Origin: a virus
Taxonomy: Duplodnaviria; Heunggongvirae; Uroviricota; Caudoviricetes
Virus record (IMG/VR): IMGVR_UViG_2541047945_000008
Coordinates: 1 to 23,343 of that record
Length of the DNA: 23,343 nt
Reading direction: 5' to 3' (one strand)
In this document: in pieces, positions 1,422-18,736 of the stretch
Numbering within the stretch: position 1 is the first letter of the stretch
How the letters are laid out: every line of letters begins with the position of its first letter
Made by a program: the position numbers and the translations under genes
Notes under the pieces: generated by a model
What the model saw: only the letters and a program-made list of their open reading frames with translations
Databases searched by the model: none
What the model was told of the DNA's origin: nothing

Positions 1422-3893
1422 TTAAAAATCAGCCTGATTTGGGATCAGTTTTTGCCAGATAGCTGAAACGTATTTTGCCTGGTAACGGGCGTCATCAAGT
1501 GCATTATGGCGCTCACCTTCGAATGGAATAGCCGTTCTGGCATCGAAGTCTATGGCTTTCCCCAGCTCAACGATTGTGCGTACATCGCGATCGTTGTAGT
1601 AACGCCACGGGCAGGGGATCCCCTGCCGTTCGTATGAACGGCGCAAAATCGTGTTGTCGAAGTTGGCTCCATTTCCCCAAACCTGAACAAAAAATTCACC
1701 GGAGTTTTCGTCGATAAATTCCCGCAATTGTAACAGTGCATCATCTAACGGGATTTCATCGGTCATAATGGCAGATTGCGCTTCGCGTGATTGCTTAAGC
1801 CACCATTTAATGGTGTCCCGATCAATGACTCCGCCAGCAGTTTCCAGATCGATAGTCTTACTAAATTCCGGTCCCATATCTCCGGTTTGCGGATCGAAAA
1901 ATATTGCACCTATTGAGATGATCGGGGCATCAGGATTTTTTCCCATGGTTTCAAGGTCGATCATTAGATGGTCACACGTCCTGCTGGTGGATGTGATTTC
2001 TTGATGACCGTTCACCTTAATTGAGTGATCTGCCGTCTCGCCAGTTTCATTATCGCTATCGTGATGCTGATTGCCGCCAGTGTTCTCCTTGTGTGGATGT
2101 TCAGCGCCTTCCATTTCCTCCGGATCATCTTCCTGAACTTCAGGCTGATACTCTTCATCGAATGTTTCCTGGTATGTTGCGTCGCCCATTACCGCGCCAC
2201 AATCAGGGCAGTTGCCGCCGCCGGTCTGACCGCAGGCGGTGCAGACTTTTTCCACTTCCTGTTGCGCCACTGATTCAGGCTGTTTCGTTTCTGGCTCGTT
2301 TTGTAACGCATTTGGGCTGTTTTGTTCCGCTTTCTGGTCGTTCTGTTCCGTTTCTTGCTGGTTCTGGTTCACAGAATCGCGGGTCTGGTTCCCCTTAACC
2401 CATTTCGGATCATTCGGGTCGCTAATCCCTTCAACAAATTCACCACGTGATACTGCAAGCAGTTCATCGGCGTCAGGCTGGCTGATATTGGCTGCCTGCA
2501 TAATTTTGTTTACTTCGTCAGCGGTAACTTTTACTGACCCTGGTTGTGCGGTCGTGTCAGATGCACCAGTATTTTGTTGTGAACCTGAGTATGTACCGTT
2601 TTTGCGGGCGAAATATTCTTCTTTCGTGATTTCAGTAGCCCCAGCAGACAGCGCCTTATCCAGACCAGAAAGTTTGTTTGCGCGACCGTATTTTTCGCCA
2701 TCCTTGTCGGTGAAGAGGAAGTAGAACGGCCCCTCACGTTCTACAGATGGTTCGACTTCCACTTTGCATTCGGTTTTTTCGTTGTCCGGAATTGCCGTTT
2801 CCACTGCATCAGTTTCTGGTACTGGCGACGAGAGAGTATCAGTTGCGCTCTGATTTGTTCCTTCATCTTCAAACACGCCCTTTGTAGTCAGGTATTCAGT
2901 AATGTATTTGTTCAGTGCCACAGGGTCTTTGTGAATGTCGATCGGACGTTCACGGACAAGGCCAAAAATAGTCTGGCGGTCGTAGCGAAGGGCATCAGGC
3001 TGTTTGCGCATTGATGCCGAGATACGCTTCCAGTCTTCGCGGTCGTTGTCGATAACTTCATTTTTTGCCCAGCGATGGATGCTGCCGTCAATGTTTCCGG
3101 CATCCACATCACCAGGCCAGAGAGCGTAGGCCAGTTCGTCATCCAGTGTTTTCCATGTCTGCTTGTATTCGCGATGAATGGCAGCAATGACCGGGTTGAT
3201 TTTTCCTGTTGAATTTTCAGTGTGCTGTTGATTGGCTCTGGCGCGGGCGAGATCAACAACAGACGTGTATTTTCCGGCTTCCTTGCGTTCACCTTCGCGA
3301 CGTTTTTTCCAGATGCGCATCTCTGCCTGAATTTCGGGCCATTTGGCACCAGGCTTACATTTATGCTTAACCCACCCGATGGCATGCAGCTTAAGCTCCG
3401 GATACATGGCGTTAACTTCTGGCATTTTCATCAACGCTTCAACGATATGTCCGTCGAATGTTGCCATGTCTTCCTGCAACAGTTCCTGCGCGCTAATCAC
3501 CATATCAACGGTGATGTTTTCACATGTGTCGAACTTAACCATGACAGCGTTCTGTACTTCAGGGGCCAGCTTGTCAAAAGTGACGTTCATCGGATCTGAT
3601 TCAGTCTCAACCGGGACAAAGGAAGCAGACGCCTCATCCCAGCGGTTTTCCTGCATATATTCAGCATCCCAGGAATCTAGGGCAGGGCGGGGTATACCGG
3701 GTTTATCCTCGCAGACAAGAAATTTATAAGCGCAGTCCTGAGCAGCCGGATAATGTTCCAGGAATTGCCAGTGAAATTTTGCGCGGGCGCGACGTTCATC
3801 ACCGGCTTCAATGGCAGTGGCTACAGCGACTGCACCTTCTTCCTTTATTGCCTGTTCGTCCGGAATGGCGGCGCAAATAAAGACTTTACTCAT
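1422..3893 (-). CDS. Prophage exonuclease (exodeoxyribonuclease VIII-like), C-terminal DnaQ-type DEDDh 3'-5' exonuclease domain
   Basis: 823-aa ORF. C-terminus carries DEDDh motifs (MIDLETMG; GNGANFDNTIL; HNALDDARYQ). Central Cys cluster CTACGQTGGGNCPDCG and an acidic low-complexity linker. SD GAGGT 8 nt before the ATG at 3893. Confidence 0.75.
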   Translation of the reverse strand: MSKVFICAAIPDEQAIKEEGAVAVATAIEAGDERRARAKFHWQFLEHYPAAQDCAYKFLVCEDKPGIPRPALDSWDAEYMQENRWDEASASFVPVETESDPMNVTFDKLAPEVQNAVMVKFDTCENITVDMVISAQELLQEDMATFDGHIVEALMKMPEVNAMYPELKLHAIGWVKHKCKPGAKWPEIQAEMRIWKKRREGERKEAGKYTSVVDLARARANQQHTENSTGKINPVIAAIHREYKQTWKTLDDELAYALWPGDVDAGNIDGSIHRWAKNEVIDNDREDWKRISASMRKQPDALRYDRQTIFGLVRERPIDIHKDPVALNKYITEYLTTKGVFEDEGTNQSATDTLSSPVPETDAVETAIPDNEKTECKVEVEPSVEREGPFYFLFTDKDGEKYGRANKLSGLDKALSAGATEITKEEYFARKNGTYSGSQQNTGASDTTAQPGSVKVTADEVNKIMQAANISQPDADELLAVSRGEFVEGISDPNDPKWVKGNQTRDSVNQNQQETEQNDQKAEQNSPNALQNEPETKQPESVAQQEVEKVCTACGQTGGGNCPDCGAVMGDATYQETFDEEYQPEVQEDDPEEMEGAEHPHKENTGGNQHHDSDNETGETADHSIKVNGHQEITSTSRTCDHLMIDLETMGKNPDAPIISIGAIFFDPQTGDMGPEFSKTIDLETAGGVIDRDTIKWWLKQSREAQSAIMTDEIPLDDALLQLREFIDENSGEFFVQVWGNGANFDNTILRRSYERQGIPCPWRYYNDRDVRTIVELGKAIDFDARTAIPFEGERHNALDDARYQAKYVSAIWQKLIPNQADF

Positions 3894-3985
3894 TTTGTTT
3901 TACCTCATTACAGATTTAAGGGTGAACAAATCCCTGCCATTGCTGGCATATAAGAATGAAACCGGATATTTATTACGGAACTGTT

Positions 3986-4177
3986 TTAAAGACCTGCCGG
4001 GATTTCGTTATTATCCTGGTGAATAACTTTATCGACCGGGTAACAGTTACCGGGAATTTTCTGTTCGGTTGCTGCAGTCACACACTCCTGCATTGTCCTG
4101 TGAACACTGACTGCAATATCAACTGGCTCTCCGGAAACAAGAAAAACTGTCAGAACAAGTGCAAATGCTGTATTCAT
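3986..4177 (-). CDS. ydfD: YdfD-like small protein with hydrophobic N-terminus (64 aa)
   Basis: Protein MNTAFALVLTVFLVSGEPVD... recalled as YdfD of the Qin dicB operon. SD AAGGA 8 nt upstream; start overlaps the dicB stop. The track ORF was trimmed to this internal ATG. Confidence 0.55.
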   Translation of the reverse strand: MNTAFALVLTVFLVSGEPVDIAVSVHRTMQECVTAATEQKIPGNCYPVDKVIHQDNNEIPAGL

Positions 4178-4362
4178 TGTGCACATCCTTTTTGTATCGG
4201 ACGTAAACGGGCCAGCATTGAAAGAATGCATATTTTATTTAATAACTCCCGTTCGTGTTTTCTCTTGTTAATGGCATCTTCAGTAAATACAGGGTTACTG
4301 ATAGTGACACCAATTTCAAAACAACCTTCAGACGTATTAACGTTTGGTAATAACGTTTCCAT
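4174..4362 (-). CDS. dicB: Cell-division inhibitor DicB (62 aa)
   Basis: METLLPNVNTSEGCFEIGVTISNPVFTEDAINKRK... closely matches my recollection of E. coli DicB (62 aa). SD GAGGA 7 nt upstream. Lies just downstream of DicF. Confidence 0.8.
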   Translation of the reverse strand: METLLPNVNTSEGCFEIGVTISNPVFTEDAINKRKHERELLNKICILSMLARLRPIQKGCAQ

Positions 4363-4540
4363 TATCGCGTCCTCAACAATGAATTTTGTGATGCAGTGCC
4401 TGGTGCCTCCAGGTGACGTTAACCAGTTAACAATTAACGCCGGGTTAGTTGATGCTCGTTACGCCCGTAAAATACCGCCTTACTGCTTTAACTGTTCCGC
4501 GTGCGCATAGCCGCATTCACCGCATCACAAAATTCACTTT

Positions 4541-4598
4541 AAAAAGGGCGGCAGAGCAGTCACGGAGTAAAACTGATACCGCCAAATGTCACCAGAAA
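4541..4598 (-). ncRNA. dicF: DicF small regulatory RNA
   Basis: The reverse complement reads tttctggtgacatttggcggtatcagttttactccgtgactgctctgccgcccttttt, matching my recollection of DicF (the ftsZ-targeting sRNA processed from the dicB operon transcript), ending in a T-run. Confidence 0.7.
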
Positions 4599-4933
4599 AT
4601 TGATAACAGAGGGCGTTGTAGCGGGGTTGTCACTTAAGCGTATGGTCAACCTGACAACCCGGTGCATTTTCTGGAGCAATGGAGGAAACCCCAGCCATAC
4701 TTACCGCCGCGCCATTTCGCGGAGTGCCACAACCGGAAGCGCACGGTCGAACTAAATTTAACGACACCGTACAGAGAGACCAATTTCGCCGTGCGCTTTC
4801 GCGTTATGCCCTGACTTTTCAGGGACATATCCTTTCAGTAAACTGTCAGTGCCGGATGCTCACCCGTGTCCGGCGCACGCACTCCACCTGACCAGTGGAG
4901 AACTCCTTAATTACCAACCCTCAGGAGGGTGAA

Positions 4934-6382: not shown

Positions 6383-6844
6383 CTACTGGTTACGTTTCTT
6401 TAGTGCCAGCATGTTCTCGAAGGCTTCCTCGTAGAGCTTGTTTAGTCCACGTAGCTGGTTAAGGAGTTTGGCTTTTTCTGACGCAGGTAGAATCTCGAAG
6501 AGGTTAAGTAACTCTGCCTGTTCTTCATTGACCAGCCTCCATCCTTTGCCTGAAAAGTTATCATCATAAGTATCTGATGATCTTACATAATTCATTAAGT
6601 CTTTAAGGTCTTCTCGAATGTCCTCTGGTTTTACCTTTAACAGAGCCGCAAATTTTAGCGCAGCGTCGGTATTTACCGGTATCTTGCCGTTCAGATACTG
6701 GCTAACGGTGCCTTGAGATTCGAATCCCAACAACTCAGCCGCCAGCTCTTGAGTCAGCTTCAGCTCTTTTTTTCTTGCATTCCATGCGGCTTTTAAATTC
6801 TTGCTCGCTTCTGGAGTTGCAATCACTTCGCGTGTTTTTTTCAT
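6383..6844 (-). CDS. Prophage repressor, DicA/RacR-like HTH-XRE protein (153 aa)
   Basis: N-terminal HTH (LTQELAAELLGFESQGTVSQYLNG). Divergent from a Cro-like gene across an AT-rich approx 100-bp region. Confidence 0.75.
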   Translation of the reverse strand: MKKTREVIATPEASKNLKAAWNARKKELKLTQELAAELLGFESQGTVSQYLNGKIPVNTDAALKFAALLKVKPEDIREDLKDLMNYVRSSDTYDDNFSGKGWRLVNEEQAELLNLFEILPASEKAKLLNQLRGLNKLYEEAFENMLALKKRNQ

Positions 6845-6945
6845 ACATAGAGTTTATTTGTTTTACCAATATTATCAAAGATAGTCTGGCTATTGATCTT
6901 TAAAATTAGCGGGGCTAATATTTGCTCGAGGCATAACGTAGAAGG

Positions 6946-7227
6946 TTGGCTATGAACTTAAGAGACTATTTAAAAGAGAAACATATCACCCAGCTACAGT
7001 TTGGGAAGCTAACGGGTTTATCTCAGGTGCATGTAAGTCGAGTGCTGGGGGGCTATGAAAGATTCAGCCCTGAAAAAGCATTACGTGTTGCTGAAGTAAC
7101 GAATTTCGAGGTTACACCTCATGAACTCCGGCCTGATATTTACCCGAATCCAACCGACGGCTTACCTGTTGGATTCAAGGCTAACACACCAAATGCATCG
7201 GAGTTGATTCATGAAAATCAGGCATGA
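6946..7227 (+). CDS. Cro/YdaS-like HTH regulator (93 aa)
   Basis: HTH (ITQLQFGKLTGLSQVHVSRVLGG), divergent from the repressor; SD AAGG upstream. Confidence 0.7.
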   Translation: MAMNLRDYLKEKHITQLQFGKLTGLSQVHVSRVLGGYERFSPEKALRVAEVTNFEVTPHELRPDIYPNPTDGLPVGFKANTPNASELIHENQA

Positions 7228-10600: not shown

Positions 10601-11287
10601 ATGACCCCAATAAAAATATTTATGACTATTGCTGATTTCAAACGGCCTAAATTGGAGCTCCCAAACGGGGCAAACAAACTACTACTGCACTCTTGCTGTG
10701 CTCCATGTTCCGGTGAAGTGATGGAGGCGCTTCAGGCCTCGGGAATCGACTACACCATCTTTTTCTACAACCCGAACATTCATCCTCAGAAAGAGTATTT
10801 AATTCGTAAGGATGAAAATATTCGCTTTGCTGAACAACACGGCGTGCCGTTTATCGATGCTGATTACGACACCGACAACTGGTTTGAACGTGCCAAAGGA
10901 ATGGAATGGGAGCCTGAGAGGGGGATCCGTTGTACCATGTGTTTTGACATGCGTTTTGAGCGGACAGCGTTGTACGCTGCTGAAAATGGTTTCAGTGTGA
11001 TCAGCAGTTCACTGGGCATTTCACGCTGGAAAAATATGCAGCAGGTTAACGAGTGTGGGCGGCGAGCTGTTGCGCATTATCCGGGTATGGTGTACTGGGA
11101 TTATAACTGGCGCAAGCAGGGCGGCTCGTCCCGTATGATTGAAATCAGCAAGCGCGAAAAATTCTATCAGCAGGAATATTGTGGCTGTGTGTATTCTCTG
11201 CGCGATACCAATCTACACCGCAAATCTCAGGGACGCCCTCTTATCAAAATTGGCCAACTCCACTACGGAAAAGAAGAGAAGGAGTGA
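10601..11287 (+). CDS. queH: DUF208/QueH-like protein (putative B12-independent epoxyqueuosine reductase), 228 aa
   Basis: N-terminal [11 protein letters not shown] motif with additional conserved Cys (CTMC, CGC), recalled as the DUF208/QueH signature. No obvious SD; alternative ATG at 10622. Confidence 0.6.
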
Positions 11288-11524
11288 TTTTATGGATCAC
11301 CTTTCTGATTGATTTCATATTGGCGAGGTGACGTGAGTTAAGTAGAATGGCTGCGGGTGCTTGAGGCTATCTGTCTCAGGCATGAACACTGAAAGGCAGA
11401 TAGAGAAAAGCCCCAGTTAACATTTCGCGTCCTGCAAGACGCTTAACATTAATCTGAGGCCCAATCTATGTCTCACAAATGTAGGTTAGCCTCTTACGTG
11501 CCGAAAGGCAAGGGGAAGCAGGCT

Positions 11525-11680
11525 ATGAAGCAGCAAAAGGCGATGTTAATCGCCCTGATCGTCATCTGTTTAACCGTCATTGTGACGGCACTGGTAACGA
11601 GGAAAGACCTCTGCGAGGTACGAATCCGAACCGGCCAGACGGAGGTCGCTGTCTTCACAGCTTACGAACCTGAGGAGTAA
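11525..11680 (+). CDS. hokD: Hok/Gef-family membrane toxin (51 aa), HokD/RelF-like
   Basis: MKQQKAMLIALIVICLTVIVTALVTRKDLCEVRIRTGQTEVAVFTAYEPEE matches my recollection of HokD/RelF. A structured leader lies upstream and a terminator downstream. Confidence 0.8.
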   Translation: MKQQKAMLIALIVICLTVIVTALVTRKDLCEVRIRTGQTEVAVFTAYEPEE

Positions 11681-11749
11681 GAGACCCGGCGGGGGAGTAA
11701 TCTCCCGCCACCTCTGATGTGCCAGGCATCCTCAACGCACCCGCACTTA

Positions 11750-11769
11750 ACCCGCTTCGGCGGGTTTTT
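11750..11769 (+). terminator. Rho-independent terminator after hok
   Basis: cccgc-ttcg-gcggg followed by TTTTT. Confidence 0.6.
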
Positions 11770-11845
11770 GCATTAGTCTGGTTGACAAAAATAGAAAAAT
11801 GCGAAAATATGTGGTTTACGAATTCTAAAAAAAGCGAAACTTGAA

Positions 11846-12496
11846 ATGAATGAAAATCAGTTAGCTCCTTGTTGGGAATTTCAACCTTATCTTGCTGAAA
11901 ACTATGTTCGCCACTTGTTGGCGGAGATCGCTAACGTACTTGAGCAGCTGTACTATCATAAGCACGCATTAGACAGCAACTGGTCTGAAGGTGTAAGGGC
12001 TTATGATTGGGTCAGAAATCATCTTATTCAAAATGAAGATGCAATTCCTGGCCTTGAGATGATTTCCAAGGGGTTGGACTATGTAGTTGCTTTAAATAAA
12101 GTTCCGCTACAATTTACCAAAGATTGCATTAATAACCCCAAAAAGAAACATCGTCTGCGTCGAAATAAAGTAGAGTATGAGCAGCTCTCATTGTTTGGTG
12201 ATGTTGAGGCTGAGCAAGATATTACATGGCGAGTCATAGCTGAGCCTTTTTTATCCGAAGAGGGCGATGGTGAATTAGAGTCCACACTGCCTCGTTGGGA
12301 GGTAGCTCTTGTTGGATTTAATACTTATGGTGCTCAGATTAGTATAGTTTCTCATCAATCTACAGCATCGATGCCGCTTATGCCTCTTGATTATAACACA
12401 CTCCCTGACGAAGCGGAGATTAATAAGGTGCCTCTTCGTCGGCGTACGAAGGATAAAGATTTGGATGTGAGCAGTGATGGAACATCAGGTGAATAA
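11846..12496 (+). CDS. Hypothetical protein (216 aa), candidate toxin/effector partnered with an HTH-peptidase
   Basis: AT-rich ORF overlapping the downstream HTH-XRE/ImmA-like gene by 20 nt. Possible promoter TTGACA at about 11781 with an AT-rich -10. No domain recognised. Confidence 0.6.
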   Translation: MNENQLAPCWEFQPYLAENYVRHLLAEIANVLEQLYYHKHALDSNWSEGVRAYDWVRNHLIQNEDAIPGLEMISKGLDYVVALNKVPLQFTKDCINNPKKKHRLRRNKVEYEQLSLFGDVEAEQDITWRVIAEPFLSEEGDGELESTLPRWEVALVGFNTYGAQISIVSHQSTASMPLMPLDYNTLPDEAEINKVPLRRRTKDKDLDVSSDGTSGE

Positions 12497-13580
12497 CTTC
12501 ACTGAGTATCGGGGTGATAAGCTCAAACTAGCGAGAATGGCTGTTGGGCTTTCTTGTGAAGAGTTAGCCGAAAAAATTGGCAAGACAAAGCAATTCGTTA
12601 GCAAACTGGAGAAGGGGTGCAGGCCATCGGAGCAATGTCTTGAGTTAATATCTTCAGCGCTTATGATTAAGTCCAGTTTTCTTTTTACTGAACGAAAATA
12701 CGCTCTGGAAAGTGATGTCTGCCATTTTCGGAGTAAGAAGTCCAGGACTCAAACGCTGACTAATAGTGTATTGGCCAGGGCTGAGATTCTTAATATTATA
12801 ATTTCTGCTGTTGAAGGTGAAATCGAATTTCCTGACGTTAACATACCGGAGCACCCAGGGGCTGAATTACTTACTCCGAATGATATTGAGCGAGTGGCAG
12901 AAGATTGTCGCCGTGCCTGGAATTTAGGTCTTGGCCCTATATCATCAATGGTTAAATTGGCGGAGAGTTTAGGGGTAATCGTTGCGCATGTTACGGGAGT
13001 CGATGATCGTGTTGATGCTTTTACTGTTCACAATAACAGGCCTGTTATCATCAGGAACAATGTTAAAAAAAGCATATGTAGATTTCGCTCTGATTTAGGT
13101 CATGAATTAGGGCATTTAGTAATGCATGAGGGCATAACGACAGGTGATAAACTTACGGAATCACAAGCCGATCACTTTTCGAGCGCCTTATTAGTTCCCA
13201 GGTTATCTTTCATTAAAGAATTTCCACGAATACGAGGTAAGCAATTCGACTGGAATGCTCTGGTTGAATTTAAACTTAGATGGAAAATCAGCCTTAAAAT
13301 GTGTATTTATCGAGCCAGCGCATTAGGCTTATTGACCCAGGAACAGGCAAGAACTGGCTATATGCATCTTAATTCCAGAGGGTATACGAGAGTTGAACCT
13401 GGTGATGAACTTTTGCGCCCTGAAGAACCCGGCATGCTGGCCGAGGCGATTGAAATGCTGGATGATGCAACCTGGCTAAGAATTCTTATGAAAACTGGCT
13501 TGAGCCAAGATTTAATTCGTGAGTTGTTCTCCATCAACAGACCTATTACAAATCCAAGAAATATTTTCCAGATTGTTTGA
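12477..13580 (+). CDS. HTH-XRE DNA-binding domain fused to an ImmA/IrrE-type (M78/COG2856) zinc metallopeptidase, 367 aa
   Basis: N-terminal HTH (LKLARMAVGLSCEELAEKIGKTKQFVSKLEKG) and HExxH zinc-binding motif (HELGHLVMHE). Track ORF starts at GTG 12474; ATG at 12477. Confidence 0.8.
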   Translation: MEHQVNNFTEYRGDKLKLARMAVGLSCEELAEKIGKTKQFVSKLEKGCRPSEQCLELISSALMIKSSFLFTERKYALESDVCHFRSKKSRTQTLTNSVLARAEILNIIISAVEGEIEFPDVNIPEHPGAELLTPNDIERVAEDCRRAWNLGLGPISSMVKLAESLGVIVAHVTGVDDRVDAFTVHNNRPVIIRNNVKKSICRFRSDLGHELGHLVMHEGITTGDKLTESQADHFSSALLVPRLSFIKEFPRIRGKQFDWNALVEFKLRWKISLKMCIYRASALGLLTQEQARTGYMHLNSRGYTRVEPGDELLRPEEPGMLAEAIEMLDDATWLRILMKTGLSQDLIRELFSINRPITNPRNIFQIV

Positions 13581-13584
13581 GTAT

Positions 13585-13606
13585 ACCCGCTTCGGCGGGT
13601 TTTTTG
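13585..13606 (+). terminator. Rho-independent terminator
   Basis: acccgc-ttcg-gcgggt followed by a T-run; same hairpin family as the one after hok. Confidence 0.6.
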
Positions 13607-13737
13607 TTTTTATTTTCAACGTGTTTGAAGTTTTGGACGGTGCCAGAATAGAATCAAAAATACTTAAGTAGCGCGCAGGGAGAAGAGGGATGGACCCCGA
13701 ACAGGGGGAGTGCTATTTATCTGGAAGGATTCTGTTG

Positions 13738-13911
13738 ATGAAAATCGAAGAATTACGTGAAATTTTTAGTGAAGATGGCCTCTATGCTGTGCGCGTTGAG
13801 AATGGGGGTATTACCTACACAGCGTTAATTCCTGATGATCATGTAGTGTTATCTGTTGAGGCATTCATTGAATACTTGGAAAGACTCGGTTTCAAGGTAG
13901 TTCGGGAATAA
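13738..13911 (+). CDS. Hypothetical small protein (57 aa)
   Basis: ATG at 13738 with SD GGAAGGA 8 nt upstream; the track ORF extends to an upstream ATG lacking proper SD spacing. Confidence 0.4.
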   Translation: MKIEELREIFSEDGLYAVRVENGGITYTALIPDDHVVLSVEAFIEYLERLGFKVVRE

Positions 13912-13970
13912 GTTATAATACGTGAGCCAGCCTGAACAACTGGCAACCTGCAGCGCCATTGGAGATGACA

Positions 13971-14243
13971 ATGGCGCATAATTTCAAATTTCGCAATTCT
14001 GATTCTGCCTTTGCCAGCAGGCACGGGTGGCGTTCTCACGCATTCAAATATGACTGGTATCAGCACGATCCCTGTACTGAAGAACAGGCCGAATGGCTGA
14101 TTCATAACTACCGCAGACGTGGATATGAGTTTAGGAAAGCCCTCACCCTCGATTATCGTCACTGGATAATCTACGTCAGACTCCCTTATTCCGAACGCCC
14201 ACCGCGTCCGTCCCGCACATTCCAGCAACGCATCTGGAGGTAA
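13971..14243 (+). CDS. Hypothetical phage protein (90 aa)
   Basis: ATG at 13971 with SD GGAG 5 nt upstream (track ORF begins at TTG). Its stop is coupled to the next gene. Confidence 0.5.
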   Translation: MAHNFKFRNSDSAFASRHGWRSHAFKYDWYQHDPCTEEQAEWLIHNYRRRGYEFRKALTLDYRHWIIYVRLPYSERPPRPSRTFQQRIWR

Positions 14244-16396: not shown

Positions 16397-16423
16397 AACC
16401 CGCTCAAATGTGCGGGTTTTTTG
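16397..16423 (+). terminator. Rho-independent terminator downstream of Q
   Basis: cccgc-tcaaatgt-gcggg followed by TTTTTT. Confidence 0.55.
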
Positions 16424-16495
16424 CTTAACTCTGTGGACCTTTTTATCTGTAGTTGTAATATATGGATATTGTTACAATTTAGGTCGGTGAGCTTA

Positions 16496-17260
16496 ATGGA
16501 AGAACAGCACGGTAATTACTTTATAAAACGAATTCAGTTGATTGGAAGAGGGGCATTTGGCTTTGTTGAACACGTTAAGGTTTACAACCTCAATAAAGGT
16601 GAATGCGGGGATTATGCTAGAAAGGTTTTAGCACCCGAAAAACCAGAGCTTTTGGCGCAAATAGAGCAGTTTAGAAGGCGTTTTAAAAGGGAGGTTGTGT
16701 ATCAATCACATTGCGTACATAGCAATATTGTTCCTATTTATTTGTGCGATTTGTTTGTTGAGAATCCATGGTTCATTATGGATAAAGCAGAATGTGATCT
16801 TGAGCACGAAATAACGAACAACCTTCTTACAACAGATCAAAAAATTTCAATAGTGAAAATGGTATTAGATGGTGTAGCTTACATCCATGCCAAAGGCTAT
16901 TTACACAGAGATATAAAACCCTTTAATGTTTTGCGATTTAGCGACGGAACATACAAGGTGTCTGATTTTGGTCTGGTAAAAGATACGAATCCCGAAGGGG
17001 ATACCACTAAATTGACCGAGATCGGTACCCGTATGGGAAGTACAAGATATATGGCTCCCGAGATTTTATATAATGCAGAGTATTCAGTTAAGACTGATGT
17101 TTATGCTGTGGGACGGTTAATTGAAGACTTAAATTTAGATGATAAAAAAATAAAGCCTATCATAGCTAAGTGCACAAGGATGGATAAAGATGATAGATAT
17201 CAGACAATAGATGATGTGGCGTTTGATTTTGCGCATTCTTTTTTAAGGAGTGAGTCATGA
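16496..17260 (+). CDS. Hanks-type (eukaryotic-like) Ser/Thr protein kinase, kinase domain only (254 aa)
   Basis: Canonical subdomains: GRGAFGFV (Gly loop), YARKVL (catalytic Lys), HRDIKPFN, DFG, MAPE, DVYAVGR. ATG at 16496 (track ORF starts at TTG 16421). AT-rich. Confidence 0.85.
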   Translation: MEEQHGNYFIKRIQLIGRGAFGFVEHVKVYNLNKGECGDYARKVLAPEKPELLAQIEQFRRRFKREVVYQSHCVHSNIVPIYLCDLFVENPWFIMDKAECDLEHEITNNLLTTDQKISIVKMVLDGVAYIHAKGYLHRDIKPFNVLRFSDGTYKVSDFGLVKDTNPEGDTTKLTEIGTRMGSTRYMAPEILYNAEYSVKTDVYAVGRLIEDLNLDDKKIKPIIAKCTRMDKDDRYQTIDDVAFDFAHSFLRSES

Positions 17261-18000
17261 TTCAGCTGATAGCGACTTCATCATTCTCGTATCCAAAAGA
17301 ACCAGGTAGGGTCAACGAAGATTCATTGCTTCCTCCAAAAATTGTAGGAGACGGCATCTTATTTGCCGTAGCTGATGGTGTAGGTTCATACTCTGGTGCC
17401 AGTTATGCTTCATCCATGGCAATCGCTGAACTTTCAGCATTGACAAGTTTATCTTTTGATGCAGTTCCGAATGTATTTGCTGAAGTTAAGCGAAAAGTTA
17501 TGTCGTTAGCTGAAGTTAATGATGAGTTCGATAAAGCTGCTACTACACTTACCTTTTGTTATGTTTGTGATAGCGGAATTATTATTGGTCATATTGGTGA
17601 TTGTCGCTTGTATTGCATTGGAGAAAAGAAAGCATATCAATTGACGAAGGACGATACCAGACATCAGATGTTAATTGATCAGAATATTTTTAAACCCAGA
17701 GATTTGAAGAATAAACCGGGAAAAAATATCTTAACGACTGCCATAGCCTCAAATGTTGATATGGAATACGACTGTGATTTTATCCCGTGGAAAGATTTGC
17801 CTGGTATTAACGGGTTGTATCATCTGTGTATCATGTCTGATGGAGTTCATAACGTTTGGGAAAAACGCCCCAGATTTACATCAAATACTATGAGTAATAG
17901 TCAGAAGTTTTCTAATGGTATTTTGCGTCGTATAGAGAGAGCCGGACCTGATGATGACTTTTCTTTAGTAAGTATAATGGTGCGTGTGACGTCAGATTAG
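17257..18000 (+). CDS. PP2C-family (PPM) Ser/Thr protein phosphatase (247 aa)
   Basis: PPM motifs: NEDS, FAVADGVGS, GDCRLY, MSDGV, GPDDD. Start overlaps the kinase stop (ATGA), so the pair is translationally coupled. Confidence 0.85.
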   Translation: MIQLIATSSFSYPKEPGRVNEDSLLPPKIVGDGILFAVADGVGSYSGASYASSMAIAELSALTSLSFDAVPNVFAEVKRKVMSLAEVNDEFDKAATTLTFCYVCDSGIIIGHIGDCRLYCIGEKKAYQLTKDDTRHQMLIDQNIFKPRDLKNKPGKNILTTAIASNVDMEYDCDFIPWKDLPGINGLYHLCIMSDGVHNVWEKRPRFTSNTMSNSQKFSNGILRRIERAGPDDDFSLVSIMVRVTSD

Positions 18001-18486: not shown

Positions 18487-18562
18487 GGCCCTTTAGCTCA
18501 GTGGTGAGAGCGAGCGACTCATAATCGCCAGGTCGCTGGTTCAAATCCAGCAAGGGCCACCA
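18487..18562 (+). tRNA. tRNA with CAU anticodon (Ile2-lysidine or Met type)
   Basis: Hand-folded cloverleaf: acceptor GGCCCTT/AAGGGCC, D-arm AGCTCAGTGGTGAGAGC, anticodon loop CTCATAA, T-arm GGTTCAAATCC, 3' CCA. Confidence 0.8.
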
Positions 18563-18569
18563 TCACATA

Positions 18570-18646
18570 CCGCCATTAGCTCATCAGGAAAGAGCGCCAG
18601 CCTTCGAAGCTGGTTGCGCGGAGTTCGGGTCCCCGAAGGCGGTCCA
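18570..18646 (+). tRNA. tRNA-Arg-like (anticodon UCG), slightly degenerate
   Basis: D-arm GCTC...GAGC, anticodon stem CCAGC/GCTGG with loop CTTCGAA, T-loop TTCGGGT, 3' CCA. One mismatch each in the acceptor and T stems. Confidence 0.55.
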
Positions 18647-18659
18647 TTATCTGTATCCT

Positions 18660-18736
18660 GCGTTGTTAGCTCAGCCGGACAGAGCAATTGCCTTCTAAGC
18701 AATCGGTCACTGGTTCGAATCCAGTACAACGCGCCA
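18660..18736 (+). tRNA. tRNA-Arg (anticodon UCU)
   Basis: Perfect acceptor stem GCGTTGT/ACAACGC, D-arm TAGCTCAGCCGGACAGAGC, anticodon loop CTTCTAA, T-arm GGTTCGAATCC, discriminator G, CCA. Confidence 0.85.

Follow-up and report, generated by a model that had tools for sequence, protein, structure and literature searches.

What kind of system do two overlapping genes form in a lambdoid prophage of Escherichia coli, and how might the product of the first gene act? The genes lie in IMG/VR virus record IMGVR_UViG_2541047945_000008 (Caudoviricetes), of which positions 1 to 23,343, a stretch of 23,343 nucleotides (nt) hereafter called the window, were analyzed. This stretch is a lambdoid prophage of E. 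coli that has integrated beside ompW, and the prophages of strain 118UI and many others are 100% identical to it. A first-pass annotation, made from the sequence alone, had described a 216-amino acid (aa) open reading frame (ORF) that overlaps by 20 nt a gene encoding a fusion of an XRE helix-turn-helix (HTH) and an M78 zinc peptidase, and had read the two as a Rosmer-like toxin-antitoxin (TA) or defense pair in which the 216-aa protein would be a candidate new effector. Our results indicate that the two genes are very probably the catalogued Rosmer TA/anti-phage pair, rmrT and rmrA, and raise the possibility that RmrT acts on the host sliding clamp, DnaN, through the short motif QLSLF.

Relation of the gene pair to Rosmer

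When compared with the defense models of PADLOC, the 216-aa protein matched RmrT model PDLC03929 (E = 4.6e-25; residues 7-209 aligned to profile positions 5-195 of 198), and the product of the downstream gene matched RmrA model PDLC03943 (E = 6e-105; residues 12-351 of 368) together with 13 further RmrA models (14 in total), which bears out the Rosmer-like reading. In PHROGs, RmrT corresponds to phrog_5786 (unknown function; E = 8e-85) and RmrA to phrog_2439. The earlier statement that the 216-aa protein has no recognizable domain holds for Pfam, where RmrT has no domain match, but not for PADLOC and PHROGs. RmrA contains the Pfam domains HTH_3 (residues 17-63) and Peptidase_M78 (residues 177-282), as well as the sequence HELGHLVMHE, in which the HExxH motif (HELGH) occupies residues 209-213 (nt 13101-13115). 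The ATG at 12477 is the RefSeq start of rmrA, with an in-frame GTG at 12474, and the overlap between the two genes is exactly 20 nt; coordinates and domain architecture are as first described.

An exhaustive profile search yielded 70 clusters of RmrT relatives of ~200 aa. For the 64 full-length sequences that were aligned (the window protein and 63 relatives), PDLC03929 was the sole PADLOC match, and the window clade forms a divergent branch of this family, scoring 86 bits vs 175-245 bits for core members. Because the family falls within one catalogued RmrT model, RmrT is not the new effector that had been suggested, and standard defense finders would already label the locus as Rosmer. What Rosmer requires is found here: an RmrA of about 360-400 aa with an N-terminal XRE HTH and an M78 peptidase carrying HExxH, an adjacent and co-oriented gene that matches an RmrT model, and a conserved operon whose genes travel together. 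The type of system has been described before, and available tools recognize it.

Millman et al. (2022) defined Rosmer as a Zn-peptidase antitoxin together with a toxin of unknown function, and verified the system of E. coli OLC-716, in which a deletion of rmrA was not obtainable; phage protection has been shown for the OLC-716 system and for that of Gordonia phage Kita. The window pair resembles the OLC-716 system in its two-gene, toxin-first operon and in its RmrA, which has the same XRE HTH-M78 HExxH architecture and length (~370 aa); over 301 aa, its identity to the verified protein (Millman et al., Table S2) is 29% (E = 2e-35). The toxins are similar in size (216 aa in the window, 239 aa in OLC-716) and share a predicted order of secondary-structure elements, namely, two long helices, three strands, a helix, a motif-bearing loop, three strands, and a disordered tail. 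They differ in that no sequence similarity between them was detectable (BLASTP E = 7; hhalign probability 0.5%), in their PADLOC models (PDLC03929 for the window toxin, PDLC03935 for that of OLC-716), and in the motif itself, which is the pentapeptide QLSLF in the window toxin and the hexapeptide QLKLDL in the OLC-716 toxin.

A candidate clamp-binding motif in RmrT

The consensus for binding to the bacterial beta clamp is Q-L-x-L-F or QL(S/D)LF, with a hexapeptide form, QLxLxL (PMC4549789, PMC9690074, PMC5397184). QLSLF is the full consensus and has been validated on the E. coli clamp (PMC4549789, PMC9690074), and the QLSLPL of Hda, carried on a flexible loop, docks in the clamp cleft (PMC4549789, PMC9690074, PMC5397184). 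The QLSLF of RmrT meets the pentapeptide consensus. Across the PDLC03929 family, whose members are only 20-25% identical, the in-register segments read QLSLF, QLTLF, QISIF, QYRLF, QLSLL, QLSLPL, QMSLL, QLSLAL, QLSLDL, and others, with a Glu conserved at 91% in front of the segment and an acidic linker of variable length behind it. A strict penta- or hexapeptide motif was present in 32 of the 64 members vs 2.9 ± 1.7 (maximum 9) in shuffles that preserve composition and ignore shared ancestry, and 26 of these 32 matches begin in the same alignment column. The proteins paired with more distant RmrA homologues on viral contigs (12-21% identical to the window toxin, all PDLC03929) have DDLF, DNLF, DDMF, QSLSLF, QSMSLF, YDLF, or QLQLF in register, again with acidic residues after the motif.

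A similar motif recurs in the sequence-unrelated family of the verified RmrT, where a conserved DDxQLxLDL, or NLDLF in Vibrio and Photobacterium, lies in a disordered loop that takes the corresponding position in the topology; it was found in 16 of 24 members vs 2.1 ± 1.4 in shuffles. What is seen in the two families is characteristic of a functional short linear motif. We compared the two families by structure prediction. The AlphaFold2 model of RmrT, built from the 64-sequence alignment (predicted local distance difference test score, pLDDT, 86; predicted template modeling score, pTM, 0.76), consists of helices at residues 18-38 and 45-62, three strands (70-92), short helices (101-115), a lower-confidence loop, three further strands (127-171), and a disordered tail. 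For the verified-type RmrT, a 93%-identical homologue was modeled; its elements follow the same order, with a disordered loop at residues 135-155. In the RmrT model, QLSLF covers the end of the helix at 108-115 and the start of the lower-confidence loop, a block whose pLDDT of about 73 is the lowest in the core; the motif of the verified-type family lies in a loop with a pLDDT below 50. A Foldseek search of the RmrT model against the PDB gave no significant match, and a sequence search of solved structures with RmrT found nothing; the fold is predicted with confidence and is without a solved homologue.

A third toxin provides the link to DnaN. RipA (Spr1630) of Streptococcus pneumoniae has been assigned to the Rosmer family and interacts with DnaN; RipA suppressor substitutions cluster in the hydrophobic pocket of the clamp, RipA and RipB behave as toxin and antagonist, and the protective action of RipB is ClpX-dependent (PMC12795458). 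Using a published primer sequence, we recovered a RipA orthologue from Streptococcus mitis C22 (L023, positions 3874-4605). It matched RmrT model PDLC03931 (E = 1e-80), and RipB matched RmrA model PDLC03945. The orthologue starts with MLNQDLFDSL and also contains SADLF (residues 57-61) and QMELV (141-145), all candidate clamp-binding motifs. The RipAB and window pairs are alike in matching RmrT and RmrA models, in gene order, and in having an Xre-peptidase antitoxin, and the clamp cleft targeted by RipA is the target that QLSLF predicts for the window toxin. They differ in that the RmrT model of RipA (PDLC03931) is a third one, with no homology detectable between RipA and the window toxin, and that RipAB is chromosomal and competence-linked, whereas the window pair is a prophage moron.

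Another precedent is SocB of Caulobacter crescentus, a replication-blocking toxin that occupies the clamp cleft by means of a clamp-binding motif and so blocks replication elongation (PMC9690074). The clamp blockade that we propose follows the logic of both RipA and SocB. The antitoxin SocA acts via ClpXP-dependent degradation of SocB, a role that fits the ClpX/ClpP dependence of Rosmer-type relatives; to our knowledge, SocA is not an Xre-M78 peptidase fusion, and we know of no description of SocAB as a prophage defense cassette.

In the mechanism that we envisage, rmrT and rmrA would be co-transcribed from the promoter of the cassette, with translation coupled through the 20-nt overlap. RmrA would repress this promoter via its XRE HTH, probably at the GGTTnAC repeats described below, and would keep RmrT harmless, possibly with the help of ClpXP, by analogy with related Rosmer-type systems. 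A phage that disturbs RmrA would free RmrT; the trigger could, by analogy with ImmA, IrrE, and CapP, be DNA damage or single-stranded DNA. The freed toxin would then dock QLSLF in the hydrophobic cleft of host DnaN and displace polymerases, so that host and phage DNA replication would stop and the infection would be abortive. The neutralization of RmrT toxicity by RmrA is presumed from RipA/RipB and from the failure to delete rmrA in the OLC-716 system.

Several observations weigh against a clamp-directed RmrT, in addition to the disregard of shared ancestry in the shuffle control. The RipA study attributes DnaN binding to no motif (PMC12795458), and the clearest motif of the orthologue, NQDLF, is N-terminal and outside the loop. 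Between the window RmrT family and either RipA or the verified RmrT, no sequence homology was found (hhalign probability below 1%). QLSLF is only five residues long, and its first three residues are helical in the AlphaFold2 model; its conservation could thus be due to folding and not to binding. An RmrT of the PDLC03933 cluster is without such a motif, and that of Gordonia phage Kita depolarizes membranes, which makes Rosmer toxins heterogeneous. Furthermore, the roles given above to the RmrA HTH, to the peptidase, and to ClpXP are drawn from analogies only, and in the literature we found no experimental study of the PDLC03929 RmrT clade that addresses toxicity, neutralization, phage protection, or DnaN binding. 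Weighing both sides, we put the proposal that RmrT targets DnaN through QLSLF at close to an even chance.

The locus itself is ordinary, a typical prophage moron site covered by existing Rosmer models, and what makes it of interest is mechanism. Rosmer systems are widespread; the window toxin carries a textbook E. coli clamp-binding pentapeptide, the unrelated verified E. coli RmrT has the same kind of motif, and RipA, the only Rosmer toxin whose target has been identified, binds in the cleft of DnaN. Clamp poisoning via a QLSLF-type motif is a specific mechanistic hypothesis that may unify several Rosmer toxin families. If true, it would explain in simple terms how a large fraction of Rosmer systems act, link them to the clamp poisoning known from SocAB, and predict that the sensitive phages are those relying on the host clamp rather than on a processivity factor of their own. 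We found no paper that reports a clamp-binding motif in Rosmer toxins and, besides the RipA study, none that links Rosmer and the sliding clamp. A broader proposal, which we advance tentatively and rate somewhat short of even, is that at least three sequence-unrelated toxin families (PDLC03929, PDLC03935, and PDLC03931) converge on docking in the DnaN cleft by QLSLF, QLxLDL, or xDLF, and that Rosmer is largely a clamp-poisoning form of abortive infection restrained by a ClpXP-assisted Xre-peptidase antitoxin. The idea that the motif is common to all Rosmer toxins was rejected on account of a PDLC03933-cluster RmrT that is without it and of the membrane-acting Kita toxin.

Alternative explanations and related systems

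The pair could be Rosmer and RmrT still kill by other means, either as a divergent PD-(D/E)xK nuclease, possibly clamp-tethered, or through a non-enzymatic target, in which case QLSLF would be a structural element or a recognition site for RmrA or ClpX. The longest structural alignments of the verified-type RmrT model include the restriction endonucleases NaeI and SwaI, the known Rosmer toxins are mechanistically diverse, and of the polar residues conserved in the 64-member alignment (D43, R/Q89, E110, R129, and E/D133), D43, E110, R129, and E/D133 are kept in 86-92% of the family. The conserved residues do not, however, build the expected site: strands 80-83 and 86-92 offer no conserved acidic residue or lysine for a PD-(D/E)xK center, D78 is not conserved, and none of the 64 members matches a Pfam family, nuclease or other, beyond noise, which makes the nuclease idea a minor rival. 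A purely structural role for QLSLF, for its part, leaves unexplained why QLxLDL is kept in the disordered loop of an unrelated RmrT family. We regard a different activity of RmrT as rather unlikely, though it is the alternative to clamp binding that deserves most attention. A reversal of roles, with a toxic Xre-peptidase fusion neutralized by the 216-aa protein, seems highly improbable. It has a model in PD-lambda-2, whose Xre-peptidase was toxic when overexpressed alone and was rescued by the upstream gene (PMC9519451), and gene order varies among ImmA-type pairs (58% toxin first). Yet PD-lambda-2 comprises three genes, the first of them HigB-like, the proteins of the window match RmrT and RmrA models and not those of PD-lambda-2, rmrA could not be deleted from the verified Rosmer system, and in RipAB it is the upstream gene product that is toxic and the Xre-peptidase that antagonizes it.

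The pair might also be no TA or defense system but a switch of the ImmR/ImmA or CapH/CapP type for the prophage or for neighboring genes, in which the 216-aa protein would be an accessory factor. The M78 domain of RmrA is of the ImmA/IrrE family, the capP (E = 1.6e-14) and capH models both gave weak matches to RmrA, and an HTH together with a conserved promoter repeat would suit a transcriptional regulator. The full-length matches to RmrA models are far stronger, however, and the HTH and protease are fused in RmrA, whereas ImmR/ImmA-type control has its repressor and its protease as two proteins. The two genes travel together, with their own promoter, between prophage positions and genera; near-identical prophages lack the cassette, so it is dispensable for prophage maintenance, which argues against an immunity role, and the prophage has its own repressor/Cro-type module elsewhere (Table 1). 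The first-pass annotation had named an ImmR/ImmA-type immunity regulator as the finding that would overturn its reading, and these last two observations speak for a locus of another kind; we consider such a switch the least probable explanation, and a Rosmer pair remains the preferred one.

Known M78 systems nevertheless help to interpret RmrA. ImmR/ImmA of ICEBs1, CapH/CapP of the cyclic oligonucleotide-based anti-phage signaling system (CBASS), and DdrO/IrrE all combine a zinc peptidase of the M78 family with an XRE HTH partner, and offer a plausible sensing logic in which a stress-activated protease inactivates the HTH protein. In these systems the HTH and protease are separate and control a downstream element or system, whereas in the window they are fused and paired with a toxin in a cassette that the prophage can do without. 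PD-lambda-2 (Vassallo et al., 2022) resembles the window pair in placing an Xre-peptidase fusion downstream of a toxin-like gene on E. coli mobile elements, and differs in its three-gene composition, in the Xre-peptidase being the toxic component, and in its models, which the window proteins do not match. A prophage toxin/antidote pair that makes clpP essential in E. coli E101 (Rousset et al.) is cited by Millman et al. for its Zn-peptidase configuration. We considered it as a member of the window clade and decided that it probably is not one (the E101 suppressor is T46S, and the window family has W46); the E101 toxin probably belongs to the verified-type RmrT family.

Anatomy, mobility, and prophage setting of the cassette

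The cassette is self-contained: its two coupled genes have a promoter with a probable operator in front and a terminator behind (Table 1). As the first-pass annotation had noted, it is AT-rich (G+C content 0.417 vs 0.49 and 0.52 in the 2-kb flanks) and has its own promoter-like sequence and terminator. The consensus scanner did not flag the promoter in the window because the -10 element is weak, and flagged its Serratia homologue with 10 of 12 matches. Sequence conservation marks this region out: the 60 nt upstream of rmrT are kept in Serratia and Xenorhabdus as well as in E. coli, and also in two viral contigs, with GGTTGAC and GGTTTAC invariant in all of them, and the sequence farther upstream is unrelated. 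The repeats and the palindrome that overlaps the second of them are candidate operator sites for RmrA. At the other end, the terminator scan placed an intrinsic terminator at 13585-13600, followed by a T-run.

Table 1. Positions of the Rosmer cassette, its elements, and selected prophage features in the 23,343-nt window.
Feature	Position	Strand	Basis or remark
Cassette promoter and putative operator	11780-11830	+	Sequence, cross-genus conservation
-35 element TTGACA	11782-11787	+	Perfect hexamer
-10 element AAATAT	11805-11810	+	Weak; 17-nt spacer after -35
Direct repeat GGTTGAC	11780-11786		Contains start of -35; 33 nt from second repeat
Direct repeat GGTTTAC	11813-11819		Second repeat
Imperfect palindrome TTTACGAATTCTAAAA	11815-11830		Overlaps second repeat, GGTTTAC
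rmrT, predicted 216-aa Rosmer toxin	11846-12496	+	ORF; RefSeq WP_001004956.1, hypothetical protein
QLSLF codons (RmrT residues 113-117)	12182-12196	+	Candidate clamp-binding peptide EYEQLSLFGDVEA
rmrA, 367-aa XRE-HTH + M78 (ImmA/IrrE) zinc-peptidase fusion	12477-13580	+	Predicted Rosmer antitoxin/regulator; RefSeq WP_000401168.1
hokD intrinsic terminator	11749-11770	+	Left copy of 21-nt direct repeat ACCCGCTTCGGCGGGTTTTTG (11750-11770); terminator scan, empty-site alignment
Cassette (rmrA) terminator	13585-13606	+	Right copy of direct repeat, ACCCGCTTCGGCGGGTTTTTTG; terminator scan, junction alignment
Repressor/Cro-type (cI/Cro) module of the prophage	6383-7227
QueH (epoxyqueuosine reductase), full-length	10601-11287		Just upstream of hokD; PF02677, E = 1e-65
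hokD	11468-11680		PF01848, E = 3e-23
Small ORFs of unknown function	13690-13911, 13959-14243		Between cassette and DUF968; phrog_340, phrog_1212
Ser/Thr kinase/PP2C phosphatase pair	16421-18000		Downstream of antiterminator Q
Three-tRNA cluster	18487-18736

The boundaries of the cassette are sharp. The 1.8-kb insert lies precisely between two near-identical terminator copies of 21-22 nt, and the empty site, seen in strain 025542-1 and others, consists of hokD, a single copy of ACCCGCTTCGGCGGGTTTTTG, and then directly the sequence downstream of the cassette. The joined flanks are 97% identical between the window and the empty-site prophage, and the two-copy pattern was found at all E. coli viral-contig loci with a 100% identical RmrA. 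A single copy at empty sites and two copies around the cassette suggest gain or exchange by recombination at the shared terminator. Among 5426 complete E. coli genomes, 232 carry at least 80% of region 11400-13900, and 1795 genomes cover 80% or more of the query made from the joined flanks. Homologous pairs with the overlap preserved lie between the replication and nin regions in Xenorhabdus and between Q and the holin gene in Serratia, and an ORF of 196-305 aa ends at the start of RmrA in 33 of the 34 viral-contig loci examined. The RmrT clade of the window is confined to Enterobacterales and Morganellaceae; among the sequenced phages of INPHARED, neither the cassette DNA nor the RmrT protein was found. 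Collectively, these results indicate that the pair is a mobile, self-contained moron of a lambdoid prophage.

Some E. coli strains (NZ_CP069459.1 and NZ_AP045810.1) match the region in two pieces, with a transposase of the IS5 or IS3 family annotated under the match, so that in some lineages the cassette may be split by an insertion sequence. In the Xenorhabdus prophage with the homologous Rosmer pair, the interval from Q to the holin gene contains ParE/Phd-like and HicA/HicB pairs as well (L002, 9449-11355), which points to the accumulation of several TA modules at moron sites of one prophage.

In the window, the prophage starts with genes for an integrase, an excisionase, and an exonuclease, followed by dicB, a cI-like repressor gene, ydaS/ydaT, and replication genes. 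The middle part contains QueH, hokD, rmrT, rmrA, the two small ORFs, DUF968, RusA, and the antiterminator Q, and the last part contains the gene for a Ser/Thr kinase with its PP2C phosphatase, three tRNA genes, and then the lysis genes. The Rosmer pair is thus flanked by hokD on one side and the DUF968 gene on the other, and the hok and QueH neighbors that had been named earlier are confirmed by their Pfam matches. The stretch upstream of hokD is variable too, since an empty-site prophage (L006) has other small genes (DUF4406 and DUF4752) where the window has QueH. Both small ORFs downstream of the cassette are also present at the empty site; for the first of them, 13690-13911, RefSeq annotates merely a 75-nt pseudogene fragment.

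A second AT-rich pair (G+C content 0.37-0.41), the Ser/Thr kinase and PP2C phosphatase genes, looks like a second defense-like moron of the same prophage. The kinase matched the PADLOC models PD-T4-6 (E = 1.8e-34), mad6 (E = 1.7e-40), and Stk2; the phosphatase had no PADLOC match. ARAGORN assigned the three tRNA genes that follow to Met (CAT), Arg (TCG), and Arg (TCT), and the first of them is annotated as tRNA-Ile in RefSeq, its CAT anticodon presumably being lysidine-modified.

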